From: an uncultured Spirochaetota bacterium
Lineage (GTDB): Bacteria > Spirochaetota > Spirochaetia > SZUA-6 > Fen-1364
DNA: 64,000 bases
Assembly: GCA_963734545.1 (NCBI GenBank)
Contig: CAVTHO010000008.1
Coordinates: 192,001-256,000 of the forward strand
Reading direction: 5' to 3'
Positions within the stretch are counted from its first letter, which is position 1. Every line of letters begins with the position of its first letter. The translations under genes and the position numbers were made by a program. A model generated the notes under the pieces. That model saw nothing but the letters and a program-made list of their open reading frames with translations. It made no database searches and was not told where the DNA came from. This document shows positions 38,125-58,205 of the stretch, piece by piece.

Positions 38125-38144
38125 TGCCCTCTCTCTCGGCCGAA

Positions 38145-38213: not shown

Positions 38214-38286
38214 CCTTGCTTCGTGATAGACTGTGGCGAGCCGGCGGCAATCCGAGTGGGACCGACGACCGGCGCGAGGAGGAACC

Positions 38287-39246
38287 ATGGACTCGGTGCT
38301 CTGCGGTGTGGATATCGGAGGGACCAAACTGGGACTCGGCATCGTCTCGACCGACGGTCACCTCCTGGCCGAAGAGACGATCCATGACCATGTGCGAAAG
38401 AGCCCCGACGAGGTGGTGGCCGACATCGCGACGCTCGTCCCCGATCTCCTGGGGCGTGTCGGTCTCCCGGTGGGGGCCCTCCGCGGCGTTGGCGTCGGGA
38501 CTGCCGGCCACCTCCGCTACAGGGACGGCGTGATGATCACCATGTCCAATCTCATCGGCTGGGCGGGCTTTCCTCTCCGCGAGCGGCTCCAGGCTCGTTT
38601 CGCTGTCCCCGTCGAGGTCGACAACGACGCCAACGCGCAGGCCTTCGGGGAGTTCAAACATGGCGCGGGCAGAGGATACAAGGACCAGGTCTTCATGACG
38701 ATCAGCACCCAGATCGGCGCCGGCATCATCCTCGGCGGGAAGCTCTTCCGCGGCATGACGGGCACCGCCGGGGAGATCGGACACACCATCGTGGATCCTG
38801 GAGGCGACGAGACCTGCCCCTGCGGGAACCGGGGCTGCCTGATCTCCATGGCCTCGGGCGTCGCCCTGCCGGGAGCATTTCGGCGAGCCTTCCGCGCCGG
38901 CGCGACCTCCCGTCTCGTCTCCGAAGCCGATCTCGGCTCCGGAACGATCGACGGCCCGCTCGTCGCCCGCGGCCTGGCGGAGGGGGACGAGGCCTGCCTC
39001 CACGTCGTGGCGGACTTCGCCTCCTGGATCGGTATCGCCGTCTACAACATGTTCCAGATCTTCAACCCCGAGGCCGTCGTCCTGGGCGGAGGCCTCACCA
39101 ACTGGGGCGCTCCCTTCTTCGACGGCATCCGCCGCAAGGTCAAGGAGCTCGCTCGAGGCATGATGTACGACGAGCTGCCGATCCTGCCGGCCACCCTCCC
39201 GGCCTCCGGTATCGTCGGAGCGGCCTCCCTCCTCCAGTCCGCATGA
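38287..39246 (+). CDS. ROK-family sugar kinase
   Basis: GVDIGGTK, VDNDANAQAFGE, AGEIGH, CPCGNRGCL, VLGGG; no HTH. Confidence 0.9.
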   Translation: MDSVLCGVDIGGTKLGLGIVSTDGHLLAEETIHDHVRKSPDEVVADIATLVPDLLGRVGLPVGALRGVGVGTAGHLRYRDGVMITMSNLIGWAGFPLRERLQARFAVPVEVDNDANAQAFGEFKHGAGRGYKDQVFMTISTQIGAGIILGGKLFRGMTGTAGEIGHTIVDPGGDETCPCGNRGCLISMASGVALPGAFRRAFRAGATSRLVSEADLGSGTIDGPLVARGLAEGDEACLHVVADFASWIGIAVYNMFQIFNPEAVVLGGGLTNWGAPFFDGIRRKVKELARGMMYDELPILPATLPASGIVGAASLLQSA

Positions 39247-40779
39247 CGTCGACGCTCCGCGCGGATGTTGTCATCGTCGGCTCCGGCCTCGGGGGCTCGG
39301 CGATCGTGAAGAGCCTGGCCGGCACCGGCCTTTCGGTGCTCGTCCTCGAACGCGGCGACTTCGTGCGCCAGGAGGCGCAGAATTGGGACGTCGGCGAGGT
39401 TGCCGTTCGACGCCGCTACGACGCGGGGGAGACCTGGTTCGACGCGGAAGGACGGCCCTTCGTGCCCCGGGCCTACTACAACGTCGGCGGCGCCACGAAA
39501 TTCTTCGGCGGCAGTGCCCTCCGGTTCCGACCCTCCGATTTCGCGGCGCGCGAGCTCGAGGGCGGCGCGACCACGGCCTGGCCCTACGGCTATTCGGAGC
39601 TCGAGTCCTGGTACGCGAAGGCCGAAGCCCTTCTCGACGTCCACGGGCAGGCGGGAGAGGATCCGACGGAGGGTCCCCGGGGCAGCTACCCTCGCCCGCC
39701 CCTCGTGCACGAGCCGGTCATCGCGGGCATCGCCGAGAGGCTCGCGGCTCAAGGCCTCCATCCCTTCCACCTTCCCGTGGCGGTGGACCAGGGCCCGAAG
39801 GGCCGCTGCGTCAAGGGGAGCCCCTGCGACGGTTTCCCGTGCAAGGTGCGGGCCAAGGGAGACGCGGAGAACCGGATCCTTCGGCCCCTGTTGTTGAAGA
39901 AGGAGCCCTGGCTCGAGCTGCGGACCGGGTGTCTCGTCGAGCGCCTCGAGACCGATACCTCGGGCGCCCGCGTCGTCGCGGCCCTGGTCCGCCAGGGAGG
40001 CGAGCTCTACCGGGTCGAGGGTGGGACGTTCGTGGTCGCTGCCGGTGCCGTCAACTCCGCCGTCCTCCTCCTCCGCTCGGCAAACGAGCGATGGCCGATG
40101 GGCCTCGCCAACTCGAGCGGACTCGTCGGACGTCACTTCATGGCACACAACAACACGGTCGTCATGGCCCTCTCTCCCTTCCGCCGGAACCCGACGCTCT
40201 TCCAGAAGACCCTGGCCCTCCACGACTACTACACGAGCGAAGGCCCGGCCGGCCGGGCCCTCGGCGCGGTGCAGTGCCGTGGCAAGGTCAAGCCCGAGAT
40301 GCTCCGCGGACGCACGGATCCTCTTCTTCGCCGGCTCGCGGCCCCTATCGCGGAGCGGAGCGTCGACTTCTGGCTGATGACGGAGGATCTCCCCCTGCCG
40401 GAGAACCGTGTCACCGTCGACGGCTCGGGCCGCATCTGCCTCGATCGGAGGCCCAGCAACACCGGGCGCCCACCGGGAGCTCGTGAGGCGCTTCATCGGC
40501 CACGTCCGCCGCGCCGGTCTCCCGATCACTTTCGTTGACGAGCGCGGTGTCGACGCCATCCAGCACCAGTGCGGCACCCTTCGCTTCGGCTCGGACCCGC
40601 GGAACTCCGTCCTCGATGCCTGGTGCCGGAGCCACGACATCGAGAACCTCTGGGTTGTCGATGCCTCGTTCCTGCCCTCCTCCGCGGCAGTGAATCCGTC
40701 TCTCACCATCCTCGCCCAGGCCCTCCGGGCGGGCGCAAGACTCCGCGCCATGCTGGCGCCCACGGCAGATTCCATCTGA
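39243..40779 (+). CDS. GMC-family FAD oxidoreductase (frameshift near 40470)
   Basis: DVVIVGSGLGG, VGGATKFFG, ANSSGLVGRHFMAH, HQCGTLRFG, SAAVNPSLT. Confidence 0.88.
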
Positions 40780-40868: not shown

Positions 40869-41672
40869 ATGGACATCACCAGCAGGAAGCGCGGCCCGCG
40901 GGGGCGGGGAAAAGTCGGCAACCAGGACATCAGCAACGCGGTCCTCGAGGCGATCTTCAAGTCGGGAACCTGCAGGGTCGCGGACCTGGCCGTGGACCTC
41001 GGAGTCTCCGAGGTCTCCGTCAGGAAGAGCCTCAACAAGCTCGAGCGCCAGGGCCTCGTGCGGCGCTACCATGGCGAGGCCCGGCTCTACGACGGGGACG
41101 ACATTCCCTTCCGGATGCACCTCCACTACCCCGAGAAGCAGGCCATCGCCCGCCATGCCGCGGAGCTTGTGGCCCCGGGGGACACGATCCTCCTCGAGGC
41201 CGGGTCGGCGATCGCGATGTTCGCCCAGAGGATCCGGGACACGAAGGGGTTGACCGTCGTCACCACCAACCTGTTCATCGCCCGCTCGTTCCGGGGCTCC
41301 AGGACGCAGGTCGTCGTGCTCGGCGGACTCTACCAGGAGGAGAGCGAGAGCCTCGTCGGCCCGTCGGTGTGCGAGGCCGTGAAGAAGATCGGCTTCTCGA
41401 AGGCCTTCATCGGCGTCTCCGGCTTCACCCTCGCCTCGGGATTCATGCTGAATGACGTCGCGCGGGCCGACGTGACACGGGCCATCCTGGAGCGCGCAGC
41501 CGAGTGCGGGGCCAGGACCTGGGTTCTCACCGACTCATCCAAGTTCGGCGTCTCGCACGCCGCGGTGGTGTGTCCCGACCTGTCCCTGTTGAGCGGGATC
41601 GTGACGGATCCCGGGATCACGGAAGAATACAGGTCGCACTTCCTGAAGGCCGGTCTCCAGATCCTGACCTAG
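40869..41672 (+). CDS. DeoR/GlpR-family regulator, YciT-like
   Basis: LGVSEVSVRKSLNKLE HTH, LGGLYQEESESLVG, FSKAFIG, VLTDSSKFG resemble E. coli YciT as recalled. Confidence 0.85.
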   Translation: MDITSRKRGPRGRGKVGNQDISNAVLEAIFKSGTCRVADLAVDLGVSEVSVRKSLNKLERQGLVRRYHGEARLYDGDDIPFRMHLHYPEKQAIARHAAELVAPGDTILLEAGSAIAMFAQRIRDTKGLTVVTTNLFIARSFRGSRTQVVVLGGLYQEESESLVGPSVCEAVKKIGFSKAFIGVSGFTLASGFMLNDVARADVTRAILERAAECGARTWVLTDSSKFGVSHAAVVCPDLSLLSGIVTDPGITEEYRSHFLKAGLQILT

Positions 41673-41767
41673 CCCGCATCGCCGCGGCCGCCGCAGGTGG
41701 CATTTCCGAAGGGCGATAGGGTCCCACCGCCCCGACCGTACCAGGCGGCCCCAATCCACTCTTGGTA

Positions 41768-44160
41768 CTAGCGGAACGAATGCTCGGTGCGGGCGATGAT
41801 GTCGTCCTGCTGGTCCGGGGCGAGGTCGTTGAAGTAGGCGGAGTAGCCGGCGACCCGAACGACGAGATCGCGGTGCCGCTCGGGGTGCTTCTTCGCGTCG
41901 AGGAGCGTCTCGCGGGACACCAGGTTGTACTGGATGTGCCAGCCCTTCATGTCGTCGAAGAAGGTCCGCAGCATCGCCTCCGAGGCGTGCCCGGTCTTCG
42001 ACCGTGCGGAGCGATCCGGGGGTCAGTTTCTGGTTGAGGAGGACCCCGCCGAAGATCTCACGGGCGGGCAGCTTGCCCACCGACGAGAGGACGGCCGTCG
42101 GTCCGAGGAGGTCGGTGCCCGATGACGGGGAGGAACCCTCCGCGAGCGGCGTGCCGGCCTTGCGCCCGTCAGGCGTCGCCTTGACGGCCGCTCCCGAGGG
42201 GACGTTCGACGAGATGCTCGAGGTGCCGGGGTAGTAGCCTCCCCCGATCGGCCCGCGCCCGAAGCGCGTGTTGCGGTACCGCTTGATCTCATCCATGTAG
42301 GCGCGGTAGGCCTCGACCGTGATCGAGTCGACGTAGTCGTCGTCGTTCCCGTACTTGGGCGCCTTGTTGAGGAGCTTGAGACGGAGGGTCTCCCCGTCCT
42401 TCCCCGCGAAGTCGGTCTCGAGGGCGGCGAGGAGCTCCTCCTTCGTCACCGACTTCTCCTCGTAGACAAGCCGCTTGATCGCGGCGAGGGCGTTGCCCAT
42501 GTTGGCGATACCGACCTGGAGGCCGGAGATCCAGTCATAGACGGCGCCGCCCTCCTTCACGGTCTTGCCGCGCCCGATGCAGTCGTCGGTGAAGACCGAG
42601 CAGAGGATGTCGGGCACCTCGGTCTCGAGAGCCGTGTCGACCGCGGTGTCCACCTCGACGCTCGCCCGCGTGTAGAAGGCGACCTGACGGCGCCACGCGT
42701 CCATGAGCGCGTCGAAGGTGGCGAAATCCGCGAGCGTGCCCGTGCCGGGGAAGAACGCCTTTCCCGAGGTCGCGTCGACGCCGTCGTTCAACGTCGCCAG
42801 CAGGATCCGGGGCATGTTGAGGAAGCTCATGCCCGTCGCGCGGTAGCCCCACTTCCCGGGCACCGCCACCTCGATGCAGCCGATGGCCGAGTAGTCGCGG
42901 GCGTCCTCGAGGCTCACGCCGCGCTCGAGCATCCCCGGCACCACCACCTCGTCGTTGTTGAACGCCGGCATGCCGAAGCCCCGGTCGATCACGCGCGCGC
43001 AGGCGTCGAGGAACTCCCGCGTCATGCCGCTGTGGTAGCGCACCGAGAGATTGGGCTGGGTGAGCCGGAGCTCGCCCACCGTTTCGAGGATGAGGGAGGA
43101 GAGCCGGTTGGTGGCGTCCTTCCCGTCCCGGTCCACGCCGCCGATGGTGACGTTCTGGTAGAGGGGACCGCCCGCGGAGTAGCGCGTGTGGGACCAGGAG
43201 CGGATCTTCTTGATCGCGAGAAGCTTGAGCCAGGTCGCCTCGAGCAGCTCGGCCGCCTCCTCGCGCGAGATGCGCCGCGAGTCGAGGTCGCGGTCGTACC
43301 AGGGTCCGAGGAACTGGTCCATGCGGCCGAAGGACAGGGAATGGCCGTTCGACTCGATCTGGAGGACGAGCTGGACGAAGTAGGCGAGCTGGAGGGCTTC
43401 GCGGAAGCTGTCGGGTGCCCCTTCCGCAATGGCCTCGCAGGTCGTCGCGATTGTCGCGAGCTCCGCCGCGCGGGACTTCGAAGGCGCCCGGGAGGCCTCG
43501 TCGCTCGCCAGGACGGCGAACCGACGGATGTATGCCGAGAAGCCCTCGAGCGCGTCGATCATCGCGAGGTGCAGCTGCCGGCGCCTCAAGCCTTCCCAGG
43601 TGGAGACGTCGTCGGCTTCGAGCTCGCGAGCGACCAGCGCCTTGTATCCTCCGAGCCCGAGCTCGAGGATCCTGCGCGTGTTCGGGGCGATGTGACCGTC
43701 GCCCGATGTCATGTTGCCCTCGGCGCGCACCATGCCCGAGTCGTGGATGGCCTTGAGCTCGGGGCTGAGGAGTGCTTCGGCCCTGTCGTGGAGGGTCTTG
43801 CCCTTCCAGTATTTCACGAGCTCCAGGAGCTCGGCCTTGTCCCCGGGAGAGATTTCATACGACTCCGCGGGCCGGTTCCCGATCCCCTCGATCTCCCGCT
43901 CGATCCACGCGACCGCGTACTCGGGAAAGATCGGGGCCGCTCGGTTCCGGGAGGCGAGGTTTCCCACGACGAGCTCATCCTTGCCGATCCAGATGGTCAT
44001 CTCCTCGAGGGTGCGCCGGAGGGCCTGCGCGCGGCGCCTCGACCACGGGGAGGTTCTCGTTTTCCTTGTAGAGGCGGGTGTAGATGCGGGCGCGTTCGAT
44101 GCAGATCGAGGGCCTGGTCGAAAGGATCTCGTCCTTGATCCGGGCTATGCGTTCGGTCAT
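41768..44160 (-). CDS. ybiW: Glycyl radical enzyme, YbiW (PflF)-like (frameshifts near 44040 and 41980)
   Basis: [31 protein letters not shown], Cys loop [16 protein letters not shown], Gly loop [12 protein letters not shown]. Confidence 0.85.
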
Positions 44161-44162
44161 GG

Positions 44163-45078
44163 TCAGCCTCCAGTCGACGTCGCGAAGCCGAGGGCGGCGG
44201 CCTTCGCCTCCCAGCGTGCGACGTCGCGCCGTTCGACGGCATGGCCCTCCTTCCAGGGGCATTCGCGATCGAGCATCGCGTACTTCCCGAGGGCCAGCTC
44301 GTGGTAGGGCAGGAAGTCGATGCGCCGCGTCACGCCCTTCGGGTTGGGAAGGACGGCCGCGAAGGCGAGCATCGCCTCGATCGAGGCGTCGTCCGCGTTG
44401 AAGCCCGGCACGAGCGGGACCCGAAGCTCGAGGTCGGCTCCCGAGGCCGCGAGAGTCATCATGTTCGCGGTGACCTGGGCGAGATTCCCGCCGGTGCCTT
44501 CCTTGAACCGGTCCGCGTCCACCTGCTTGAGGTCGGCGAGCCAGAGGATCGGAAGGCCGAGGAGGGGCTCGAGTGCGCGAGGGGCCACGGCGAGGCAGGT
44601 CTCGATCGCCACGCTGACGCCGCGCCCTGTGAGGATTTCCGCGAGCTCGCGCTGCAAAGGCGTGGTAGGCGAGCGGTTCTCCGCCCGAGAAAGTGACTCC
44701 GCCGCCCGACTTCGCGAAAAAGGGAGCGTCTTTCATCACGTCGCGAGCGACTTCTTCCGCCGTCATTTCTTGTCCGGCGATGCGGATGGCGAGCGAGGGG
44801 CACACCTTCGCCAGGCCTGGGGCCGCTTTCGCAGCGCGGTTGGCCTGCACGCTCCCGTCCTCGCGCTGCGCCATTGCTCCTCCGAAGGCAGGGTCGAGAC
44901 AGGCGTGGCAGCCGACACAGCGATGCTCATTGTAGAGGATTTCCGGCTCGAAGGACTGGCCTTCAGGGTTGGAGCACCAGGCACAGCGCAAAGTGCAGCC
45001 CTTGAAAAAGACCACCGTGCGTATGCCGGGTCCGTCATGAGTCGAGAAGCGCTGTATGTCGAAGATTGCAGCCACCAA
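44163..45078 (-). CDS. ybiY: Glycyl-radical activating enzyme, radical SAM (frameshift near 44660)
   Basis: IQRFSTHDGPGIRTVVFFKGCTLRCAWCSNPE, GGVTFSGGEP, RVPLVPGFN, LPYH. Confidence 0.88.
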
Positions 45079-45356
45079 AGAACTCTATCAGGTTATTTTC
45101 ATTTGGTCAATATTTGATTCCGTTCGTAAGTATCGAGAAATGGAACCCTAGTCAAATTTCTAGAGGCTATGGTAGACAGACAGCCTCCTCCTCCTGCAGA
45201 AGATGGAAAAAAACGTTGACGGAAGTGAACTGCCGTTTCTATATTCCCGCATTGTGAGCCCGTACATTCTGAACGCCATCGCAACGACGGTCTTCGTCAA
45301 GAACCCGGGTATAAAGATCCAGCTGAAAGTGAGTTCCAGAATCGATTGGAATTTTG

Positions 45357-45421
45357 TTGACATATGAATTGGTTTAGATATAATCGTGTCGGTTACGGAT
45401 GAAACATTTTTATGTTTCATC
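45357..45421 (+). promoter_or_regulatory. Consensus sigma70 promoter with perfect palindromic operator
   Basis: TTGACA 45357, 16 bp, TATAAT 45379; GATGAAACAT-TTTT-ATGTTTCATC at 45398-45421. Confidence 0.75.
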
Positions 45422-45447
45422 TAATACGTTCCTGAAGGAGGTAGTGA

Positions 45448-46387
45448 ATGAAAAGAGTTTTGGTAATCGGACTCATCCTGCTGGTCGCGATCGCCTTCGG
45501 CGTTGGTGCCCAGGCCAAGCTGGTGAAGGCCGCGTTTGTCATCTCGAACGCCGCCAACGAATCCCAGGCCTTCTCGTCGAAGCAGTTCCTGAAGTTCGGG
45601 GCGCAGTACGGCTTCGACATGTACACCTTCGACGCGAAGGGCGACACCCAGGCCGAGTCGCAGATCGTCACGAACTGCATCGCGCAGAAGTTCAAGGTCA
45701 TTTTCCTGAACCCGAACGACATCAGCGCCATCGTCCCGAGCATCATCAAGGCAAAGGCAGCGGGCCTGATCGTCGGCATGTTCTCCTCGGACCTCGCGCC
45801 GGAGAACCAGAAGTACCGTGACTTCTATGCAGGGGTCAACGATACGATGGCCGGCCAGCAGGCTGCGACGTCATTCAAAAAGGCCTTCCCGAACGGCGCC
45901 AAGATCGTCGAGATCGGCGGCCAGGCGGGCCACGACGCCCAGATCAAGCGGCACGATGGATTCAACGGCGCCCAGGGGATCATGGGTTCGAAGATCCAGG
46001 TCCTCGACTACAAGGCCTGCCAGCAGTGGGCAACCGACCAGGCGCAGACCATCATGGAAGACGACATCGTGAAGTTCGGGACCGACATCCAGGGCGTCTT
46101 CGTCCACTGGGACAACGGCGCAACGGGCGTCATCCAGGCGGCAAAGGCCGCGGGCATCAAGGGCCTGTTTATCGTCGGCGTCGACGGCAACCGCGCCGGC
46201 TACTACCAGGTCCAGAGCGGCGACCAGGCTGTCAGCATCGCCCAGGACTTCGTGCTCATGACCAAGACGGACCTCGGGCTCGCCCGGGACGTCCTCGCCG
46301 GGCAAGAAGGTTCAGCCGATCAACTTCGTGCCGCTCTTCGCCGTCGACAAGAACTCGATCGCGAGCTTCGATCCGCCCGAGTGGTAG
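45448..46387 (+). CDS. Sugar ABC substrate-binding protein, CUT2 (frameshift near 46300)
   Basis: RBS AGGAGG, signal peptide, AQIKRHDGF, HWDNGA, VGVDG; shifted frame ends FDPPEW-stop. Confidence 0.88.
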
Positions 46388-46409
46388 AGATCGGCATAGT
46401 CTGAAAGGG

Positions 46410-46480
46410 CTCGTTCCACCCTCTGGCGGGACGAGCCTTGTTCTTCTCGTTCCGCCTCTGGCGGAACGAGCCTTGTTCTT
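46410..46480 (+). repeat. Tandem duplication of a ~35-bp hairpin
   Basis: CTCGTTCCACCCTCTGGCGGGACGAGCCTTGTTCTT followed directly by CTCGTTCCGCCTCTGGCGGAACGAGCCTTGTTCTT. Confidence 0.8.
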
Positions 46481-46505
46481 ATAACCTTCACGCAAGGATG
46501 GGGCC

Positions 46506-48005
46506 ATGGCAGCAGGCGGCTCTGAGATCATCCTGTCCATCAGGGACGTGAGCAAGTCATTCCCCGGAGTCAAGGCCCTCGACAGGGTCTCGATCGACGT
46601 CCGTCGCGGCACGGTGCACGGCATCGTCGGCGAGAACGGCGCGGGCAAGTCGACCTTGATGAAGATCCTGTCCGGTGTCTACCAGAAGGACAGCGGCACG
46701 ATCGAGTTCGACGGCGCGCGTGTCGAGCACACCACCCCGCACCAGTCGATGCAGAGCGGGCTGGCGATCATCTACCAGGAGCTCAACCTCGTCAACACGA
46801 TGAGCGTCGGGGAGAACGTCTTCCTCGGCCGATTCAAGGAAATGAAGGGCATGCGGGGCACCCACGCAAAGGCGCGGGAGCTCCTGGACAGCATCGGCTG
46901 CAAAGTGCCCACGACCCGCCTGGTTTCCGAGCTCTCCGTGTCGGAGAAGCAGATGGTGGAGATCGTCAAGGCGCTGTCCTTCCAGTCGAAGCTCATCATC
47001 ATGGACGAGCCGAGCTCGAGCCTCACGGCAGAGGAGATGGCCGAGCTGGTCGAGATCATCCATCATCTCCGGGAGAAGGGGATCTCGATCATCTACATCA
47101 GCCACAAGCTCGACGAGATCTTCCAGTTCTGCGACATCGTGAGCGTGATGCGGGACGGCCGTGTCGTCGACACCAAGGCCGTGGCTGAGTTCACGCGGAA
47201 CGAGCTGGTCTCGATGATGGTCGGCCGCACGATCGAGAACGAATACCCCCCGCGCCCCCACAGCGTGGGCGCGGTCGTCATGGAAGTCCGTTCGATCCGC
47301 ACCCACAAGCTCCACGACATCTCCTTCACGCTTCACAAGGGCGAGATCCTGGGCCTTGTCGGCCTTGTCGGCGCGGGCCGCACCGAGATCGTCCGGGCCA
47401 TCTACGGCGCTGACAAGGCACGCGGACACGAGGTCCTCCTGGGCGGCAAGCCCGCGGCAATTCGCAATCCCCGTCATGCCAAGGACTTCGGCATCGGGCT
47501 GATCCCGGAAGACCGCAAGCTCCAGGGCCTCGTCCTGCCCTTTTCCGTTGAATCGAATATTTCCATGGGGAGCATACGGAAGTTCAGCCGGCTCGGCTTC
47601 ATCCGGAGGTCCATCGAGAAGGGCATCGGGGCGCGACAGGTCCAGGCCCTCTCGATCAAGACGCCCTCGACCCGGGTCGCCGTGAACAACCTTTCGGGCG
47701 GCAACCAGCAGAAAGTCATCGTCGGGCGGTGGCTCGAGATCTCGCCGCAGATCTTCATCATGGACGAGCCGACGCGGGGCATCGACGTCGGCGCCAAGTA
47801 CGAGATCTACCTCCTCATGAAAAGGATCGTCGAGGCGGGCGGGTCGATCATCCTCATCTCCTCCGAGCTTCCCGAGGTGCTCAACATGAGCAACCGGGTG
47901 CTGACGATCTTCGAGGGACGAACCACCGGGGAGTTCTATCCGGAGAAGACCCCGGTGGACGAGATCATGAAGGCCGCGCTCGGCCTCGAGGGAGGCGCCG
48001 CATAG
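46506..48005 (+). CDS. Sugar ABC ATP-binding protein
   Basis: GENGAGKST, DEPSS, LSGGNQQK, DEPTRGIDVGAK. Confidence 0.92.
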   Translation: MAAGGSEIILSIRDVSKSFPGVKALDRVSIDVRRGTVHGIVGENGAGKSTLMKILSGVYQKDSGTIEFDGARVEHTTPHQSMQSGLAIIYQELNLVNTMSVGENVFLGRFKEMKGMRGTHAKARELLDSIGCKVPTTRLVSELSVSEKQMVEIVKALSFQSKLIIMDEPSSSLTAEEMAELVEIIHHLREKGISIIYISHKLDEIFQFCDIVSVMRDGRVVDTKAVAEFTRNELVSMMVGRTIENEYPPRPHSVGAVVMEVRSIRTHKLHDISFTLHKGEILGLVGLVGAGRTEIVRAIYGADKARGHEVLLGGKPAAIRNPRHAKDFGIGLIPEDRKLQGLVLPFSVESNISMGSIRKFSRLGFIRRSIEKGIGARQVQALSIKTPSTRVAVNNLSGGNQQKVIVGRWLEISPQIFIMDEPTRGIDVGAKYEIYLLMKRIVEAGGSIILISSELPEVLNMSNRVLTIFEGRTTGEFYPEKTPVDEIMKAALGLEGGAA

Positions 48006-48007
48006 CC

Positions 48008-49002
48008 ATGGGAGAAGTCGCAGTGCGCATGGGAGAGAAATCCGGTGGCGAGGGCGGTCCAGGTCCTCTTCCGGGACTACCTCGTCCTTGTGATGATCAC
48101 GGCGCTGGTCGTCCATCACGGCAATCGTGGAACCCAAGTTCCTCACGCCGCGGAACCTGATCAACATCATGCGCCAGTTCGGGCCCCTGATCATGGTCAG
48201 CCTGGGCATGACCTTCGTCATCATCGGAGGTTTCATCGACCTCTCGGTGGCCGGCATCATCAACCTCGTCGCCGTTGTCACCATCTCCCTGATCGGACCC
48301 CTGGGGCAGGTGCCGGCCCTCCTTGCGGGACTGGCCATTGGAGCGGCGTGCGGGGCGCTCAACGCCGCCGCGATCCTGACCTCGGGAGCCCTGACGCAGG
48401 CCGAGGCGCTGTTCCTCACGTTCGGCATGAGCACCGTGTTCTCGGCCTTTGCGCTGCTGTACAGCGGCGGCATGACGATGCATTTCTGGGACATCAAGAC
48501 GAGCAAGGCGATGTTCGAGACGATCGGCGCGGGAACCGTCGGCCCCTTTTCCGTCTCCTTCGTCATCTTCCTCGTCGTGCTCCTGCTGCTGTGGATCTTC
48601 CAGACCAAGACGACGGAAGGAAGGGCCATCAGCCTCACCGGCGGCAACAAGACGGCCGCCCGCCTGAGCGGCATCCGTATATTGCGAAGCATCGCCGTCA
48701 TCTACGTGATCTGCGGCCTGATGACCGGGCTGGGGGCCATCGTCCTCTTTTCCCGGATCACGACGGCCGCCCCCGTCATCGGCCTGGGCTACGAGACAAA
48801 CGCCATCCTCGCGGTCGTGGTCGGCGGCACGACGCTGAAGGGCGGCAAGGGAAGCGTCCTCCGGACGGTGATGGGCGTCCTCCTTGTCATCCTCATGTCC
48901 AATTGCCTGAACCTCCTCGGTGTCTCGACCTACCTGCAGGTGGCCGTGAAGGGCGCGATCCTGGTCCTCGCGATCTGGCTCGACAACCGCAAGCAGGTGT
49001 AG
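48008..49002 (+). CDS. Sugar ABC permease (frameshifted near 5' end)
   Basis: IGGFIDLSV, GGNKTAARLSGI, YETNAILAVVVGGTTLKGGKGS. Confidence 0.88.
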
Positions 49003-49013
49003 GAGGAGGGACG

Positions 49014-49977
49014 ATGACAGGCAACGGCATCGGAAGAAGGCTTTACTCGATCGTGATGAGGCAGAAGGCATTCGTCGCCATCATCGTGATGATGGGCGTG
49101 ATGCTCTTCTCCGGCACGCAGTTCTACACCGCGTACAACCTCCTCGACATGCTCAACTCGACCTCGATCCTCCTCATTCTCTCCTTCGGGGTCACGTTGA
49201 CGATCATCGCGGGCGGCTGCGACCTTTCCATCGGCGGAATCCTCGTCGTATCGGGCATCCTCTCGATCAAGCTGCAGGAGTACATGCCCATGGAGTTCGC
49301 CATCGCGCTCGCCGTCGTCTTCGGCATCGTGGTCGGCTTCGTGAACGGGTTCCTCTCCGTCCACCAGAAGACGGAGCCCTTCATCATCACGCTGGGCATG
49401 GGCCTCCTGCTCACCGGCGTCGCCCAGCAGCTCACCGACGCCCATCCGGTGCCGGCCAAGAATCCCGCCTTCATGATGATCGGCAACGGGGACTTCCACG
49501 GGGTGCCGAACCTCGTGATCATCATGGCGGTCTGCTTCGCCCTGGCGCTACTGGCTCATGCGCTACACCCAGTTCGGCCGCAACCTGTACGCCATCGGCG
49601 GCGACTACGAGGTGGCGCGCTACTCGGGCATCCCGGTCATCCGGACGAAGTGGATCGCATTCGTGATCAGCGGCGGCTGCGCCGCCCTGGCCGGAATGCT
49701 TCTCTCCTCCAAGCTGAACACCGGCTCGTCGATCTACGGCGACCTGACCGCCCTCGTGGTGAACTGCGGCGTCGTCGTCGGGGGAACCTCGTTCGCCGGC
49801 GGCATCGGCGGAATCCCGCAGTCGGGCCTCGGCCTCCTGGTGTTCGGCATGCTCGACAACGTGATGAACATGCTCGCGATCAAGTCCTACTACCAGGTAT
49901 TGTTGAAGGGCGCTGTCATCGTGGCGATCATCTGGCTCGATTGCTACGCCCAGAAGCGGAGACGCGAGTTCATCTAA
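49014..49977 (+). CDS. Sugar ABC permease (frameshift near 49545)
   Basis: IAGGCDLSIG, EPFIITLG, FGRNLYAIGG, VGGTSFAGG. Confidence 0.88.
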
Positions 49978-49998
49978 GGGCCGAACGGAGCTTTTCGA

Positions 49999-52377
49999 GT
50001 GGATACCAAAGGATGTGACAGGATAAGGGCGCTCCCCAGCACGCCGCGGATCGCGGTGCTCAAACAGCGCATGCTTGCGGCGCCGCGTTACCTGTCGATC
50101 GAACAGGCCGCGATCGTCACCGAATACTACAAGGCCAATCCGGACAAGCCGCGCGCCACCCAGCGCGCCGAGTCCCTCGCAGAAACCCTCCGCAGAATCG
50201 AGATCCGGATCGACCCGCTGGAGCTGATCGTCGGCAACCGGACCTCCGGCGTCCGCGCGGGCGTCGTCTCACCCGAGGCGGGAATCTCCTGGCTGGACGA
50301 CGAGATCGAGCGGCTGCCGGTGCGCCCGCAGGACAAGTTCGAGGTCCGACCGGAGGATATCGCGACATTCCGGCGCGATATCCTGCCTTTCTGGAAGGGA
50401 AAGTCGCTCGAGGACAAGGTCAAGGAAGCCCTCGGCGACGAGATTGCGGCGATCGGCAAGGTCGCGAAAATCAACCAGACCGACCACGCGCAGGGCCATA
50501 TCTGCCCCGACACGAAAGGTTGGCTCGCGAAAGGGCCGCGCTCCATAAGGGACGATGCTTTGGCCCGGGCCGCGACGGCCGCGCTGGAAAAGCGTGACTT
50601 CTATCGCGGGATGGCCATCGCCCTTGACGGTGCCATCGACTTCATGCGGCGCTACGCCGCCCTGGCCCGTACCATGGCGGCCGACCGCGCACACGGGGAG
50701 CACCGGGCCAACATAGAGGAGATCGCTCGCGTCTGCGACAAGCTGTCGCACGAGCCTCCCTCGACCTTCCGCGAGGCGGTGCAGGCGCTCTGGTTCCTCT
50801 TCGTGCTGCTGCAGGCCGAGTCGAACGCCTCGTCGTTCTCCCCCGGCCGGGCCGACCAGTATCTTTTCCCCTACTACCAGCGGGACATCGAAGCCGGGAC
50901 GCTGGACGACGCGGGAGCGCTGGAGATCATCGAGGCCCTCTGGCTCAAGTTCAACCAGATCGTCTACCTGCGAAGCTCGAGCAGCGCCAAGTACTTCGCG
51001 GGATTCCCCATCGGCTTCAACGTCGCAATCGGCGGCCTGGACGATCGCGGTGAGGACGCCTCCAACGAGCTTTCCTTCCTCTTCCTCCGCGCGCAGGCGC
51101 ATATCGGCCTGCCGCAGCCCAACCTCTCTGCGCGCCTCTCGGAAAAGTCCTCGGAGGAGTTCGTCCGCGAGTGCGCGAGGGTGATCGGACTGGGCTCGGG
51201 CATGCCCCAGGTCTTCAACGACGAGAGCATCGTGCCCGCCCTGATGGCGCGTGGAATCTCCGCCGAGGACGCGAGGAACTACGCCATCGTCGGCTGCGTG
51301 GAGCTCACCACGCACGGCAACGCCCTGGGATGGAGCGACGCGGCCATGTTCAACATGGTCAAGGCGCTCGAGCTGACGCTCAACAACGGCATCTGCCTGC
51401 TCACGGGAAAGAAGATGGGGCTCGACCTCGGCTCCCTGGGCGACTACCGCAGCTACGAGGAGCTGGAGGCGGCCTTCCGCACGCAGATGGATCATTTCAT
51501 CGGGCGCATGATCAGGGCCTGCGACGCGGTCGACCGCCTGCACGCGGAGATCCTGCCCTCGCCCCTGCTCTCTTCGGTCATCGAGGGGTGCGCGGAAAAG
51601 GGCCTCGACGTGACGGCGGGCGGGGCACACTACAACCTGTCTGGAATCCAGGCGATCCAGCCGGCCAACCTCGCCGACTGCCTCGCGGCGATCAGGCAGT
51701 GCGTCTTCGACGAGCGGAGCGTGAGCGCAGAGGAGGCCCTTGCGGCGATGCGCAGCGACTACGCTGGCAAGGAGAGCCTCCGGCAGCGTCTCATCAACAA
51801 GGTCCCGAAATACGGCAACGACGTGGACTGGGTGGACGCCATCGCGGCCAAATGGGTCGACTATTTCGCGGCGCGGATGAGCGAGTATACGAACGCCCGC
51901 GGAGGGCCCTACCACACGGGGCTCTACACGGTGTCCGCGCATGTGCCCATGGGACAGAACGTGGGTGCCTCGCTCGACGGGCGCAGGGCCAGGGACCCTC
52001 TCGCGGATGGGGGCATGTCCGCGATGTACGGTCGTGACCGTCACGGCCCGACGGCCCTCCTCCGCTCGGTATCGAAGGTGAGGTCCCTGAACGGCAGCAA
52101 CGGCACCCTCCTCAACATGAAGTTCCTGCCGGAGTTCTTCACAACCGAGGAAGGCATCGACAAGTTCGCGAGTTTCCTCCGCACCTTTGTCCGGCTCCGG
52201 ATCAACCACGTGCAGTTCAACGTGGTCCGCAGGGAGGACCTGGTGGCCGCGAAGGCCGACCCGGAATCGTGGCGCAGCCTGACTGTCCGCGTGGCCGGCT
52301 ACACGGCCTACTTCTCGGAGCTGGCCAACGACCTGCAGGACGAGATCATCGCGCGGACGAGCTACGGCGACCTCTGA
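49999..52377 (+). CDS. pflD: Glycyl radical enzyme, PflD-like
   Basis: INQTDHAQGH, ESNASSFS, LRSSSSAKYFAGFP, Cys loop IVGCVEL, YTVSAHVP, Gly loop VRVAGYTAYF. Confidence 0.85.
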   Translation: MDTKGCDRIRALPSTPRIAVLKQRMLAAPRYLSIEQAAIVTEYYKANPDKPRATQRAESLAETLRRIEIRIDPLELIVGNRTSGVRAGVVSPEAGISWLDDEIERLPVRPQDKFEVRPEDIATFRRDILPFWKGKSLEDKVKEALGDEIAAIGKVAKINQTDHAQGHICPDTKGWLAKGPRSIRDDALARAATAALEKRDFYRGMAIALDGAIDFMRRYAALARTMAADRAHGEHRANIEEIARVCDKLSHEPPSTFREAVQALWFLFVLLQAESNASSFSPGRADQYLFPYYQRDIEAGTLDDAGALEIIEALWLKFNQIVYLRSSSSAKYFAGFPIGFNVAIGGLDDRGEDASNELSFLFLRAQAHIGLPQPNLSARLSEKSSEEFVRECARVIGLGSGMPQVFNDESIVPALMARGISAEDARNYAIVGCVELTTHGNALGWSDAAMFNMVKALELTLNNGICLLTGKKMGLDLGSLGDYRSYEELEAAFRTQMDHFIGRMIRACDAVDRLHAEILPSPLLSSVIEGCAEKGLDVTAGGAHYNLSGIQAIQPANLADCLAAIRQCVFDERSVSAEEALAAMRSDYAGKESLRQRLINKVPKYGNDVDWVDAIAAKWVDYFAARMSEYTNARGGPYHTGLYTVSAHVPMGQNVGASLDGRRARDPLADGGMSAMYGRDRHGPTALLRSVSKVRSLNGSNGTLLNMKFLPEFFTTEEGIDKFASFLRTFVRLRINHVQFNVVRREDLVAAKADPESWRSLTVRVAGYTAYFSELANDLQDEIIARTSYGDL

Positions 52378-53315
52378 TGGACGGGACGATCATTGACATC
52401 CGCCGCTTCACGCTCCATGACGGCCATGGCATCCGCTCGACCCTCTTCCTGAAAGGCTGCGGCCTGCGCTGCGCGTGGTGCCAGAATCCCGAAGGCATCG
52501 ACACTGCCGTCGGCCTCTGGTACCTCGCGAAGCAGTGCATCCGCTGCGGCCTGTGCGAGGCGAGCTGCCCGGTCGACGCAATCGGTCTGCACGCAGACGA
52601 GGATCCCTTCGTCCGGATCGACCGGGGGCTCTGCACACGCTGCGGAGCCTGTGTCGCCGCCTGTCCGACGACCGCGCTCTCGTTCGATGGAAGCAGGGTC
52701 TCCGCCGAGGAGGCCGCCGCGGCCCTCCTGCGCGACGTCGAGTTCTACCGGCAGTCGGGCGGAGGGATTACTATTTCCGGAGGCGATCCGCTCGTCCAGC
52801 ACGCGTTCGCACGGGAAGTGCTCGGCCTCTGCAAGAGGTCGGGCGTCCATACTGCCATCGAGACCTGTCTCTTCGGGGATTGGGAAGTTCTCGAACGCTT
52901 CATTCCCCTCACGGACCTTTTCATCATCGATCTCAAGATCGCGAACAGCGCGCTGCACGCGGAATATACCGGCCGTCCGAACGACCTCATTCTCGACAAC
53001 TACGCGAGGCTCGCCCGGGCGGGCGTGGAGCTCCTCACGAGGATGCCGCTGATCCCGGGCATCACGGCGACGGAAGCAAACGTGCGGGCGCTGGCGAGCA
53101 TCGTCCGGGAGACAAACCCGGGCGGGCGCGTCGAGTTGATCAACTTCAACCCTCTCGCGATCAACAAATACTCCCTCATGAACCGGGGCAAGGAGTTCTT
53201 CAACGGCATGGCTCCGCTGCCCGATGGCGAGGTCGAGGCGCTCCGCGCGCTGTTCGAGGCCGAGGGTCTCGCGGTAGTCCGGGAGCACAGACGATCGGAC
53301 GGTGTCGGGAGGTGA
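52377..53315 (+). CDS. pflC: Glycyl-radical activating enzyme with two auxiliary 4Fe-4S motifs
   Basis: TGATG coupling; HDGHGIRSTLFLKGCGLRCAWCQNPE; CIRCGLCEASCP and CTRCGACVAACP. Confidence 0.9.
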   Translation: MDGTIIDIRRFTLHDGHGIRSTLFLKGCGLRCAWCQNPEGIDTAVGLWYLAKQCIRCGLCEASCPVDAIGLHADEDPFVRIDRGLCTRCGACVAACPTTALSFDGSRVSAEEAAAALLRDVEFYRQSGGGITISGGDPLVQHAFAREVLGLCKRSGVHTAIETCLFGDWEVLERFIPLTDLFIIDLKIANSALHAEYTGRPNDLILDNYARLARAGVELLTRMPLIPGITATEANVRALASIVRETNPGGRVELINFNPLAINKYSLMNRGKEFFNGMAPLPDGEVEALRALFEAEGLAVVREHRRSDGVGR

Positions 53316-55194
53316 CATGGTCCGGGGTTTGATCGAGCAGGCGAAGGCGGGCCGGAGCGTGTACATCACCGACCTCCATGCCCTGTTCCGCGACCTTGCT
53401 GACCGGGAAAGCCATCGACTCGCCTGCGTCGTGGAGATGCTCGATGGCACGGGTCTCCGCCGTTTCGATCTGCGGGTGCCTCGCGTCGACGGCCTGGGCG
53501 GCGAGGAACGCGCCTTCGTCGAAGACTACATCCACGCGGAGGTCTACAACATCATCTCGGCCCTCGGGGGGAGGCGCATGGCCGTCTACTCCGACCAGGG
53601 ATCTGCGGAGTTCCTGACGATCCTCAATCGGCTGCCGGCTGTCTTCGGCATCGGACTCCCCCGCTCATCCCGCTCGGGCTACGGGCGTGCGGTCAACGTC
53701 ACGGACCGGATGATCGGCGCCCTGTCGCCGGGCGCGCCCGCCTTCTCGTTCGAGTTCGATTCCCTGGACCGGGCCCCGGCCGCGATGAGACCCCGGGCTC
53801 CCTCCGTGGACCTGGTCGGCTTTTTCCGCGGGCGGACCGAGCGGCTCGAAGGCAAGGCCCTGATCGGCCTCGACGTGGGCGGCACCGACATCAAGGCCGT
53901 TCTCGTCGACGACGGCCGTATCGTCGACTACACGGAGTACGACTGGTTCCCCGCGAGTTTCCTCCGTTCACGGCAGCTGGTGGATCCTATCTGCCTGATC
54001 GTACGCCTGCTTTTAGCGCGATTGTGGATCCATCGTCTCGGAGCAGCCGACGGCCGCCGAGCGGCCCTGGTCGAGCTCGCGGCGAAGGCCCTCCACAAGG
54101 GAAGCGCGCCGACGGGAACGGCGTCGGGTACGCCGCCGGCGGAGATGGCGCGCGCGCTGGCCGACCTTGAAGCGGCGGGGCTCGACAGGGGTCTCCGGTG
54201 CGACGGGATCGGGCTTTGCTTCCCCGACGTCGTGGTCAGGAACAAGATCGTGGGCGGCGAGGTCTACAAGACCCGAGGCATCCGCACCAACACTGCAATC
54301 GACTACGAAAGGGACTTCGCCGAGCTCACCGATCTCGATGTGCGCCTCCGGGAATGGGTCGCTCCCGAGGGGACGGTGCGCATCATCAACGACGGGCCAA
54401 TGGCCGCGTTCACTGCCGCGGTCGAGATGGCCGCCTCGCCCGACGCCAGGGACGTGACCCGGGGCGTTTTCGCCCATACGCTCGGGACCGAGCTGGGCAC
54501 GGGGTGGGTGACCGAGACCGGTGCGATCCCTGACATCCCGCTCGAGGTGTACAACTTCATCATCGATCTCGGCTGCTGGCCGGAGCGTGCCTTCGAGCCG
54601 GATGACCTCCGCAGCCTCAACAACTTCAACACCGGCCTGCCCGGCACGCTGCAGAAGTACTGCAGCCAGAGCGGCGTCTTTCGCCTCGCCCTCAAGCGGT
54701 TCTCCTCGGAGCGCCCTGATCTCCTCCGCGAGCTCGAAGAAAAGGGCTTCGTCGAGCGGCGCCCGGCGGACGGGACGGAGGGCTGGTACGTGCCCACCGA
54801 TCCCGTGGACCAGCGGAAGCCTTTCCTCGAACACATGATGAAGCTGCCCGACCGGGAAAAAGACGACACCAACCGCGAGATCTGGCGCGAGATCGGGAAG
54901 TCCCTCGCGGTGACTCTCCTCGAGACGCGGCGTATCCTCGAGCCGGGCACCGACCTGCGCTTCCTCTTCGGGCGTCTCGTCAAGAACGCCACATGCTTCG
55001 ACCTCATGGTGGAGGGCGCCCGGAGAGTCGATCCCGGGATCCTGCTCGCCGTGGCAGGCACCGGCATGGCCAACACCCCTCTCATGAAGCAGCTGAAAGG
55101 GCATCCGCACCTCACCGTCGCGCAGTTCGCGCAAGCCATCGGCGCCGTGTACTTCGCCAACCCGGCCACGGTAATCCGTGGCATTCAGGAATGA
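53302..55194 (+). CDS. Large divergent ROK/ASKHA-fold protein, putative sugar kinase
   Basis: GLDVGGTDIK, GIGLCFPDVV, IINDGPMAA, HTLGTELGTG, AQAIGA; about 180-aa N-terminal extension and long insertions. Confidence 0.65.
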   Translation: MSGGDMVRGLIEQAKAGRSVYITDLHALFRDLADRESHRLACVVEMLDGTGLRRFDLRVPRVDGLGGEERAFVEDYIHAEVYNIISALGGRRMAVYSDQGSAEFLTILNRLPAVFGIGLPRSSRSGYGRAVNVTDRMIGALSPGAPAFSFEFDSLDRAPAAMRPRAPSVDLVGFFRGRTERLEGKALIGLDVGGTDIKAVLVDDGRIVDYTEYDWFPASFLRSRQLVDPICLIVRLLLARLWIHRLGAADGRRAALVELAAKALHKGSAPTGTASGTPPAEMARALADLEAAGLDRGLRCDGIGLCFPDVVVRNKIVGGEVYKTRGIRTNTAIDYERDFAELTDLDVRLREWVAPEGTVRIINDGPMAAFTAAVEMAASPDARDVTRGVFAHTLGTELGTGWVTETGAIPDIPLEVYNFIIDLGCWPERAFEPDDLRSLNNFNTGLPGTLQKYCSQSGVFRLALKRFSSERPDLLRELEEKGFVERRPADGTEGWYVPTDPVDQRKPFLEHMMKLPDREKDDTNREIWREIGKSLAVTLLETRRILEPGTDLRFLFGRLVKNATCFDLMVEGARRVDPGILLAVAGTGMANTPLMKQLKGHPHLTVAQFAQAIGAVYFANPATVIRGIQE

Positions 55195-55330
55195 GGACGC
55201 GGCGCTGCGGCGCCGCTCACGCTTTCGGCGTCGACGTTGTTCCCCGCCCACGTGGCGAGGTTCAGCACGTGCAACTGGTCCAGCACGACGGTAGCAGACG
55301 CGCTTGACGCCTCGCCGGCGTCCACACAGG

Positions 55331-57374: not shown

Positions 57375-58205
57375 TCACCCCTTGACCGCGCCGGCGGTCA
57401 TGCCGGCAATGAATCTGCGCGATGCGGCCCAGAATACGAGCATGACGGGTGCGAGGGCAAGCGTCGTGGCCAGCATCAGGACCCCGTAGTCCATCCCGCG
57501 GTAGGGATCCCCGCGCAGCAGGTTGAGCGCGAGGGGAAGCGTCATCACGTACTTGTTGGTCAGGACGAGAAAGGGATAGAAGAAATTGTTCCAGCTCCCC
57601 AGGAAGTTCATGATTCCCAGCGCCGCGTATGCGGGGACCAGCAGAGGGGCCACGATCCTGAAGAAGATGAGCACCTCGGGACAGCCGTCGATCCGCGCGG
57701 CGTCAATGAGGGCGGGATGGATCGTGGAGGAGATGTACTGGCGCATCCAGAACACCCCGAAGGCGCTCGCCGCGGCGGGGACGATCACGGCCAGGAAGTT
57801 GTTCGTCCATTTCAGCCTCGTGGTGATGATGAACCAGGGAACCAGGTCCACCAGCCAGGGCAGCATCATGGTCCCAAGGAGGGCGGCGAAGACGAGCCTC
57901 TTCAGCGGAAAATCCAGCATCGCGAACGCGTACCCGCCCAGCGAACAGAGAGCCAGGGAGAGGAAGGTGATGGCCGCGGCGACGATGACGCTGTTGAGAT
58001 AGTTCCGCCAGAAAGGCACCGTGGCGATCACGCTCGCGTAGTTTTCACCTGTCCGCATTCCCGGGAGCAGCGGCGGCGGGGTCTGCAGTATCTCGTGCGA
58101 GCTGTGCGTGGCCTCGATCAGCATGAAGAGAAACGGGAGGAAGATGATGAGGGAGCACGCTCCGAGGAAAATGTTGGCAGTGGTCCTTGCGCCCGCATCA
58201 CGCAC
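57375..58205 (-). CDS. Carbohydrate ABC permease
   Basis: GGYAFA, LIDAARIDG, GMTAGAVKG. Confidence 0.9.
   Translation of the reverse strand: MRDAGARTTANIFLGACSLIIFLPFLFMLIEATHSSHEILQTPPPLLPGMRTGENYASVIATVPFWRNYLNSVIVAAAITFLSLALCSLGGYAFAMLDFPLKRLVFAALLGTMMLPWLVDLVPWFIITTRLKWTNNFLAVIVPAAASAFGVFWMRQYISSTIHPALIDAARIDGCPEVLIFFRIVAPLLVPAYAALGIMNFLGSWNNFFYPFLVLTNKYVMTLPLALNLLRGDPYRGMDYGVLMLATTLALAPVMLVFWAASRRFIAGMTAGAVKG

Follow-up and report, generated by a model that had tools for sequence, protein, structure and literature searches.

An island encoding two glycyl radical enzymes (GREs), which are oxygen-sensitive, was analysed in the genome of an uncultured Spirochaetota bacterium (GCA_963734545.1; 5.1 Mb in 10 contigs, about 63% G+C, completeness 89%). 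The window, that is, the whole stretch of 64,000 nucleotides (nt) under analysis, is part of contig 8 (CAVTHO010000008.1, positions 192,001 to 256,000), and its own numbering is used below. The initial annotation, made from the sequence letters, had described two GREs, each with its own activase, transcribed divergently from an AT-rich spacer, and all of the parts it described were recovered between 40869 and 55194, with domain scans and G+C bins confirming the divergent pairs. A YciT-like DeoR gene lies beside the YbiW-like arm, as had been noted, and the PflD-like arm carries an ATP-binding cassette (ABC) importer and a gene with a kinase fold, and no genes of the phosphotransferase system (PTS). 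The features are the following:

40869-41672, plus strand: DeoR-family regulator, YciT-like (HTH_DeoR and DeoRC domains), convergent with GRE1
44160 to 41768, minus strand: GRE1, YbiW-type GRE (PF02901 and PF01228 across frames; breaks near 44045 and 41978)
45078 to 44163, minus strand: ACT1, radical S-adenosylmethionine activase of GRE1 (TIGR02494), directly upstream of GRE1; break near 44640
45085-45447, no strand: AT-rich divergent control region (G+C bins, promoter and palindrome scans)
45448-46404, plus strand: periplasmic sugar-binding protein of the CUT2 type (PF13407, 125 bits)
46506-48005, plus strand: double-cassette ABC ATPase of the RbsA/XylG type (domain and NCBIfam scans)
48097-49002, plus strand: permease 1 (BPD_transp_2)
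49050-49977 (approximate start), plus strand: permease 2 (BPD_transp_2 in two frames; break near 49545)
49999-52377, plus strand: GRE2, intact GRE of a clade sister to PflD (NCBIfam, solved structures, trees)
52377-53315, plus strand: ACT2, activase of GRE2 (two-cluster ferredoxin insert)
53317-55194, plus strand: ASKHA625, 625 amino acids (coding by codon-position G+C; ROK fold in the structural model)

The plus-strand operon consists of seven tightly packed genes. GRE2 and ACT2 overlap at TGATG and a gap of 1 nt separates ACT2 from ASKHA625, while ACT1 and GRE1 on the opposite strand are 2 nt apart. With a PF13407 binding protein, a fused double ATPase and BPD_transp_2 permeases, the importer has the parts of a CUT2 system. 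The codon-position G+C of the ASKHA625 open reading frame (ORF), about 0.68, 0.45 and 0.88, marks it as a real plus-strand gene. A terminator scan past the end of the operon (55100-55400) found none.

Comparisons between genomes were based on the best 80 of 132 genome loci encoding an ASKHA625 relative, with at least 3.4 kb of sequence upstream of ASKHA625 in the informative loci (60) and with wide flanks in 43. Identity cut-offs were 55% or more for GRE2-type enzymes, 40% or more for the ROK kinase and the flavoprotein, and 60% or more for DeoR orthologues. From the 80 loci, GRE ORFs of at least 650 amino acids with alignments of at least 550 amino acids were taken into a tree of 77 rows (tree 1), together with E. 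coli references and the fragments of this genome, shorter or broken ORFs being dropped. Tree 2 (81 rows) is tree 1 plus four HypD equivalogs, and the ASKHA625 tree comprises 75 rows after the removal of five loci whose matches were short or interrupted. CutC equivalogs sought as further tree references gave no match in 201 genomes of the phylum, where the control queries were also without a match.

GRE1 was found to be of the YbiW type, as had been proposed. Against solved structures, YbiW scored 830-837 bits and the next entry, glycerol dehydratase, 464 bits; in the other direction, E. coli YbiW had GRE1 as its reciprocal best match in this genome, with 55% and 80% identity over two pieces. 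In the trees GRE1 falls within a 10-row clade that holds E. coli YbiW, with Shimodaira–Hasegawa-like approximate likelihood ratio test (SH-aLRT) values of 100 in tree 1 and 99 in tree 2. Both the pyruvate formate-lyase barrel and the glycyl domain are present, with RVAGY as the glycyl motif and GCIE aligned to the Cys loop of YbiW (C-x-E), and ACT1 has the cluster motif CTLRCAWC. Judging by its sequence, GRE1 is an orthologue of YbiW and a candidate 1,5-anhydroglucitol-6-phosphate C-O lyase.

GRE2 had been described as PflD-like. The description stands in that PflD is its nearest solved relative, with 645 and 615 bits compared with 560 bits for glycerol dehydratase, and a 17-member profile of the GRE2 clade gave the same order (825 and 803 versus 753 bits), so that PflD is the nearest characterised relative by a small margin. 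The best NCBIfam model is PflD as well, at 766 bits, followed by the HypD, CutC and HpfG models at 551-563 bits. The description fails at the level of orthology, since GRE2 does not reach the PflD equivalog cut-off of 1109 bits (NF007437) and belongs to a separate sister clade. Other members of that clade score 700-788 bits with this model, compared with 1725 bits for E. coli PflD and 1341 and 1355 bits for the PflDs of two betaproteobacterial loci, L022 and L049.

In both trees GRE2 lies inside a 58-row clade (SH-aLRT 100) and outside the E. coli PflD clade, which has four rows: E. coli PflD, two betaproteobacterial PflDs above the cut-off and one Clostridia sequence. The union of the two clades (62 rows, SH-aLRT 97-98) leaves the YbiW rows and the four HypD equivalogs outside, and a fully supported branch of 0.62-0.63 separates the GRE2 clade from the PflD clade. 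The tree placement suggested for both enzymes among YbiW, PflD and HypD references thus put GRE1 in the YbiW clade, as predicted, and GRE2 next to PflD rather than with it; on sequence grounds GRE2 is a member of a large sister clade of PflD and not a PflD orthologue. GRE2 carries a GCVE Cys loop and RVAGY, and so has both residues named in the review passages (PMC13450708), the Cys and the Glu in the C-x-E loop. The motifs ESNASS-S-GR, SSA(K/R)YFAGFP and LADGG-S, compared by eye, are common to GRE2 and PflD and differ in glycerol dehydratase. A third GRE of the genome, about 30% identical to YbiW and to PflD, lies on contig 10 (62520-65470) together with an activase of its own; its frame is broken, and the match contains two TGA codons.

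The last gene of the operon had been called a ROK-like dedicated kinase, a name that sequence models did not bear out and that the predicted structure did. No Pfam or NCBIfam match was found (E up to 0.01) for the ASKHA625 ORF, the overlapping frames or the opposite strand, and a 15-sequence profile found nothing significant among PDB sequences, with E values of 0.021 to 1HUX and 1.2 to 1WOQ. At least 1262 relatives of about 605-620 amino acids share sequence words with it, nearly all of them named hypothetical. Among 1.84 billion representatives, a profile search found only 375 clusters (50% identity, E ≤ 0.001), 152 of them at E ≤ 1e-30, and HMMER therefore does not connect the family to ROK. 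In the ESM Atlas, the homologue P0064 returned only "hypothetical protein" clusters and one ROK cluster at 0.93.

The structural model of ASKHA625, built with 70 sequences, has a mean predicted local distance difference test (pLDDT) score of 94.3 and a predicted template modelling (pTM) score of 0.94. A first model from 15 sequences, with a mean pLDDT of 70 and low confidence in the conserved core, was replaced; its Foldseek matches had pointed in the same direction, more weakly. In the later model, residues 178-620 superimpose on ROK sugar kinases with Z scores of 19-21.6 and a root-mean-square deviation (rmsd) of 2.6-3.5 Å over 271-306 residues, covering nearly the whole targets; the top match, 6JDB, has Z 21.6 and rmsd 3.0 Å over 285 of 290 residues. 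Foldseek also gave kinases as the top structural matches (E 1e-10). In at least 90% of the 70 sequences D186-x-G188-G189, N358-D359 and G390-T391-x-x-G394 are kept, and these, following the pattern known for ROK kinases (DxGGT, N-D, GTxxG), we take to be the phosphate-1, catalytic N-D and phosphate-2 motifs of a ROK/ASKHA fold. Ahead of the kinase domain, residues 1-175 form an extra conserved N-terminal domain, which gave no fold match in the whole-protein search, a search that barely tests it as the kinase domain fills the lists. The model thus makes ASKHA625 look like a sugar kinase, of a predicted kinase family that is uncharacterised and without a Pfam or NCBIfam model.

A GRE2-type enzyme with its activase stands immediately upstream of ASKHA625, on the same strand, in 50 of the 60 informative loci, and this recurrent order indicates an arrangement beyond chance; a GRE2-type enzyme anywhere in the locus was found in 54. 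The ten exceptions to the order are L018, L022, L034, L040, L042, L046, L049, L059, L065 and L067. Among the wide loci, 31 of 43 have the cognate ABC importer and 9 of 43 a YbiW-type GRE. The neighbourhood survey called for at the outset therefore supports the GRE2, activase, kinase and importer grouping, but does not make a twin-GRE locus special to this genome, since a YbiW-type GRE is present within the examined flank in 10 of the 80 related loci; the ROK kinase occurs in 10 and the flavoprotein in 16. The surveyed loci belong to Spirochaetota, Bacillota, Chloroflexota, Myxococcota and Pseudomonadota, and the GRE2–ASKHA625 pairing comes from wetlands, sediments and digesters. Of 301 sampled genomes of the phylum, 2 encode ASKHA625, the window's own included, so that it is rare and patchy in the genomes searched.

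The main argument for the substrate of GRE2 comes from L022 and L049. In these betaproteobacterial loci a canonical PflD, which shares up to 70% of its residues with E. coli PflD, stands beside ASKHA625 and the same importer, with an ATPase of 73% identity, and their ASKHA625s are nested in a 30-row clade (SH-aLRT 100) of GRE2-linked, spirochaete ASKHA625s. This exchange of one GRE for the other suggests that the phosphorylated substrate of GRE2 is that of PflD or one very like it.

Some further genes recur around these loci. A DUF1479/Gig2-like protein (PF07350), the family of E. coli YbiU, which is a neighbour of ybiV-ybiW-ybiY, is encoded in six of the related loci, L022 (13371-14693), L024, L025, L049, L055 and L057; the link of PF07350 with anhydro-sugar GREs may therefore predate E. 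coli. Directly after ASKHA625, a conserved convergent ORF of about 175 amino acids with no Pfam family, a candidate gene, is found in 29 of the 80 loci (for example, L004:12100-12624, minus strand); it is absent from this window, where a GH42 beta-galactosidase (55331-57370, minus strand) lies downstream of ASKHA625.

The control region between the two arms is 363 nt long (45085-45447), and the bin 45000-45499 has a G+C of 0.444 compared with 0.60-0.69 in the flanking bins. A perfect TTGACA-16-TATAAT promoter, 12/12 to the sigma-70 consensus, was found at 45357-45384 on the plus strand, and just downstream of it, at 45398-45421, a perfect 10+10 palindrome, GATGAAACAT-N4-ATGTTTCATC, which is unique in the window and was matched in 0 of 100 shuffles. 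A weaker promoter-like site faces the minus strand at 45110-45082, and an Rfam scan of the region gave no matches. The palindrome core, TGAAACA-N6/7-TGTTTCA, recurs ahead of 9 of the 34 orthologous binding-protein genes, at 38-45 nt from the start codon, and in L003 and L030 it stands beside a divergent YciT-like DeoR gene. The best NCBIfam model of the DeoR protein is NF040887 (YciT), at 203 bits for a cut-off of 450, and orthologues are present in 10 of the 80 loci. We infer that the palindrome is the site of the DeoR protein, through which this YciT-like regulator probably controls the importer/GRE2 operon. In 27 loci the GRE2-type gene or the importer is immediately preceded by the gene of an AraC-family regulator (for example, L030:5608-6549 and L052:5857-6771); this locus lacks one and has the DeoR regulator and the palindrome instead.

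A block of four genes to the left of the DeoR gene also belongs to the island:

36188-37316, minus strand: Gfo/Idh/MocA oxidoreductase, levoglucosan-dehydrogenase-like (Pfam GFO_IDH_MocA and C3, split over 36528-37316 and 36188-36751)
37450-38124, minus strand: ribulose-phosphate 3-epimerase family protein (PF00834)
38233-39243, plus strand: canonical ROK-family sugar kinase (PF00480, 195 bits), outside the span first annotated
39243-40538, plus strand: FAD flavoprotein with a GMC N-terminal-type domain only (weak GMC_oxred_N, DAO and FAD_binding_2 matches)

This order recurs with GRE modules in L008, L030, L050, L052 and others. The N-terminal half of the oxidoreductase scores 176.6 bits with the NCBIfam levoglucosan dehydrogenase model (cut-off 650), and its intact orthologue from L052 matches 4H3V (243 bits) and 6A3F (210 bits); an assignment as 1,5-anhydrofructose reductase was rejected, as 2GLX reached only 78 bits. 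Its neighbour cluster was found in 10 of 81 sources. The epimerase-family protein, at 51.6 bits for TIGR01163 (cut-off 212.6), has its cluster in 7 sources. The ROK kinase scores 199 bits with TIGR00744 (cut-off 260), and since its gene adjoins the YbiW-type GRE in L033, L050 and L052 it is the candidate kinase of the YbiW branch. Residues 2-314 of the flavoprotein resemble the catalytic subunits of FAD glucose/fructose dehydrogenases (6A2U_B/8HDD, 106 bits). An rmlD-type reductase in the neighbourhood of 35326-40538 passes its cut-off (TIGR01214, 242.8 bits; cut-off 224).

An Fsa aldolase beside the GREs, as in E. coli, is not part of this locus, in which neither Fsa nor GldA was found. E. 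coli FsaA, FsaB and GldA were only weakly matched in the genome, and three TAL_FSA-family genes on other contigs are not closely like E. coli Fsa. The proposed independence of the PTS is valid for the locus, which has no PTS genes, and not for the organism, since PTS enzyme I (ptsI) is encoded in the genome.

The chemistry that the initial annotation had given for the E. coli enzymes is borne out by passages of two reviews, one of 2026 (PMC13450708) and one of 2025 (PMC12441222). According to these, YbiW cleaves 1,5-anhydroglucitol-6-phosphate and PflD cleaves 1,5-anhydromannitol-6-phosphate, both to 1-deoxyfructose-6-phosphate, which is split by aldolases, and E. coli phosphorylates both anhydrohexitols by the PTS (PMC13450708, PMC12441222). 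The spirochaete island is, on balance, probably a transporter-plus-kinase form of this "anhydroglycolysis". The CUT2 ABC importer would take up an unphosphorylated anhydro-hexitol, with 1,5-anhydromannitol and 1,5-anhydroglucitol as the leads. For the PflD-like branch, phosphorylation by ATP would be carried out by ASKHA625, co-translated with GRE2 and ACT2, and for the YbiW branch probably by the canonical ROK kinase (38233-39243). GRE1, activated by ACT1, would then open the ring of 1,5-anhydroglucitol-6-phosphate by radical C-O cleavage, while GRE2, activated by ACT2, would open that of 1,5-anhydromannitol-6-phosphate or of a closely related compound. An aldolase whose gene lies outside the locus would cleave the resulting 1-deoxyfructose-6-phosphate. 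All substrates, the kinase activity, the pairing of kinases with GREs and the regulation are inferred here. The island is a genuine, conserved version of a pathway already known; both its kinase family and its sister clade of PflD are uncharacterised.

Several observations weigh against this assignment. The advantage of PflD over glycerol dehydratase in the GRE2 comparisons is only 50-85 bits, GRE2 stays below the equivalog cut-off, and both GRE trees were built without glycerol dehydratase and CutC rows. The GRE2 clade and the ASKHA625 family are both uncharacterised. ASKHA625 does not match the PF00480 sequence model, and the motif CxCGxxGC, presumably the zinc motif of ROK proteins, is by eye not kept in it: the corresponding stretch, QKYCSQSG, has a single cysteine, C449, which is conserved in less than 90% of the 70 sequences. 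Three of the 60 informative loci (L059, L065 and L067) have no GRE in the examined flank, a clear Fsa was found in 1 of the 80 related loci (L071), and one locus, L046, contains PflD-clade, GRE2-clade and YbiW-clade enzymes together, which suggests different substrates. In addition, four frame breaks stand in the island in this assembly.

Part of this evidence would fit a third branch of the pathway, undescribed so far, in which GRE2 and ASKHA625 handle another imported anhydro-, deoxy- or rare sugar and not 1,5-anhydromannitol. ASKHA625, as the founder of a new kinase family that joins a ROK fold to a novel domain at the N-terminus, would phosphorylate this sugar, for the GRE2 clade to cleave or isomerise; the branch could be tied to the left block, which would feed further anhydro-sugars. 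The long, fully supported branch that parts the GRE2 and PflD clades, the failure of GRE2 at a cut-off passed by the enzymes of L022 and L049, the three clades side by side in L046 and the likeness of the Gfo/Idh/MocA neighbour to levoglucosan dehydrogenase all agree with it. However, the same kinase lineage and importer serve a canonical PflD in L022 and L049, the GRE2 motifs adjacent to the active site are PflD-like as judged by eye, and PflD is the best solved relative of GRE2. A separate substrate is therefore possible but the less probable explanation. If this is true, the phosphorylated compound opened by GRE2 would be an anhydro- or rare sugar beyond the two known substrates, and the left block would feed plant-, fungal- or fire-derived anhydro-sugars to the island in wetland anaerobes.

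ASKHA625 might also act as something other than a catabolic kinase, either as a ROK-type sugar sensor or regulator or as an ATP-dependent accessory factor of the GRE. It is more tightly linked with the GRE–activase pair than with the importer, it has the extra conserved N-terminal domain, and the ROK repressors Mlc and Lmo0178 share its fold with Z 14.6-20.8. Nevertheless, the DNA-binding domains of Mlc and Lmo0178 are not aligned to the N-terminal domain, the matching ranges of the model starting at 175-180, and the top structural matches are kinases. The phosphate-1, N-D and phosphate-2 motifs are conserved at 90% or more, 3 of the 60 loci carry ASKHA625 with no GRE in the flank, and the replacement of the PTS by an ABC importer makes a kinase necessary for the pathway. 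A role as sensor or accessory factor is thus unlikely.

The four frame breaks are single-base events in GRE1 (two), ACT1 and permease 2, none of them within a long homopolymer, so that GRE1 is read in three frames and ACT1 and permease 2 in two each, and GRE1 has no uninterrupted frame in this assembly. In GRE1 the profile positions 2-50 and 57-106 of the glycyl radical domain lie in different frames and the first 40 residues in a third; ACT1 has positions 1-142 of TIGR02494 in one frame and the second half in another, and permease 2 has profile positions 2-105 and 146-268 in separate frames. Similar breaks were found elsewhere. On contig 9, rpoC (about 93.3 kb) and ptsI (about 64.32 kb) are split likewise, while rpoB is whole; the third GRE is broken too (contig 10, 62.5-64.5 kb), and so are the window genes at 36188-37316, 6039-6959, 3492-4973, 18882-19241, 21689-21991 and 61820-62158. 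The types of gene found in pieces across the window include Gfo/Idh/MocA, GH31 and several ABC parts, and the density of about one break per 3-4 kb is alike in essential genes and in the island.

Close relatives of GRE1 are intact. Its 11 best cluster representatives, with 91-95% identity and from several sources, are whole 796-amino-acid proteins, and for one relative, P0274 (95% identical), all 796 residues are encoded here without stops: residues 1-40 in frame -2, 38-727 in frame -3 and 728-796 in frame -1, with 100% identity across the 69 residues past the second break. Four runs were mapped on the locus and cover it in short stretches, with 90-99% identity. Over both GRE1 break segments and the permease 2 segment, contigs from related populations show a net one-base difference, and the exact site of the difference is listed for the permease 2 break only (49544-49550); at the ACT1 break, one related contig has 9 gaps and a net difference of 3 bases. 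Since rpoC, ptsI and many other genes are also broken while close relatives are intact, and since every residue of P0274 is still encoded and the related contigs differ by net single bases, the four breaks are most likely assembly errors. True pseudogenes in a decaying locus, to which four breaks in 14.3 kb outside long homopolymers might point, are very improbable given the equally broken essential rpoC, ptsI and window genes, the fully encoded P0274 sequence, the eleven intact representatives and the single-base differences of related contigs over three of the four broken segments. Gene calls from this assembly will be fragmented, and with single-base frame breaks throughout it the completeness of 89% may be an underestimate.

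The remainder of the window forms a neighbourhood of sugar-catabolism genes. An Fe-alcohol dehydrogenase with an FGGY kinase and two more CUT2 importers occupy the segments 12748-15547, 15887-19241 and 26171-29857, and a CUT1 importer lies beside GH42 (57378-60541). A XylR/AraC regulator is encoded at 32045-33736 and a GMC oxidoreductase with a pyranose-oxidase-like C-terminus at 33730-35322. The named relatives of the window proteins are from Spirochaetia and Rectinemataceae metagenome-assembled genomes, and the metagenome runs with words in common with the locus come from wetland, peat and sediment, with shares of 0.16-0.35.

To our knowledge, the only loci known for radical "anhydroglycolysis" are of the E. 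coli type and depend on the PTS. Assuming the transporter-plus-kinase assignment, the island shows how organisms importing by ABC transporters could run the same radical chemistry. It also points to the ASKHA625 family as a nearly constant companion of the large, uncharacterised clade that is sister to PflD. Thousands of entries annotated as "formate C-acetyltransferase" or "hypothetical protein" could then be corrected, and the island offers concrete proteins for expression. The pathway was reported in E. coli by Ma et al. (2024; JACS 146:26187), whose abstract reportedly mentions variants of it in other anaerobes, and the ABC-plus-kinase form may therefore already be in print. Among the papers found, as represented by their available passages, all concern the E. 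coli route, and none on an ABC-plus-kinase variant or on a kinase for anhydrohexitols was found.

Compared with known systems, the ACT1-GRE1 pair has the same activase-then-GRE order as E. coli ybiY-ybiW, and GRE1 is 55-60% identical to E. coli YbiW, with which it shares the clade, the C-x-E loop and RVAGY. In contrast to the E. coli locus, fsaA, ybiV and ybiU are not beside GRE1 and the PTS is not in the locus; GRE1 instead faces the ABC importer operon and lies near the DeoR, ROK kinase and flavoprotein genes. The GRE-then-activase order of GRE2-ACT2 is also that of E. coli frwCB-pflDC-frwD, although GRE2 is 42-45% identical to PflD and outside its clade. Where the E. coli pflD locus has PTS parts, including ptsA, this locus has the CUT2 ABC importer and ASKHA625, and the aldolase and GldA encoded there by fsaB and gldA are not at this locus. 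The importer resembles RbsABC/XylFGH in its PF13407 binding protein, double ATPase and BPD_transp_2 permeases and differs by having two permease genes, and its binding protein is weakly similar to RbsB and XylF (69 and 68 bits). Finally, ASKHA625 shares with ROK kinases, namely N-acetylmannosamine kinase (6JDB, 6Q27) and glucokinase (3VGK, 2QM1), the predicted fold of residues 178-620 (Z about 20-21.6) and the DxGGT, ND and GTxxGxG motifs. It is only 13-20% identical to them, without a PF00480 match, and adds about 150 residues of insertions and the conserved 175-residue N-terminal domain to the ROK fold.

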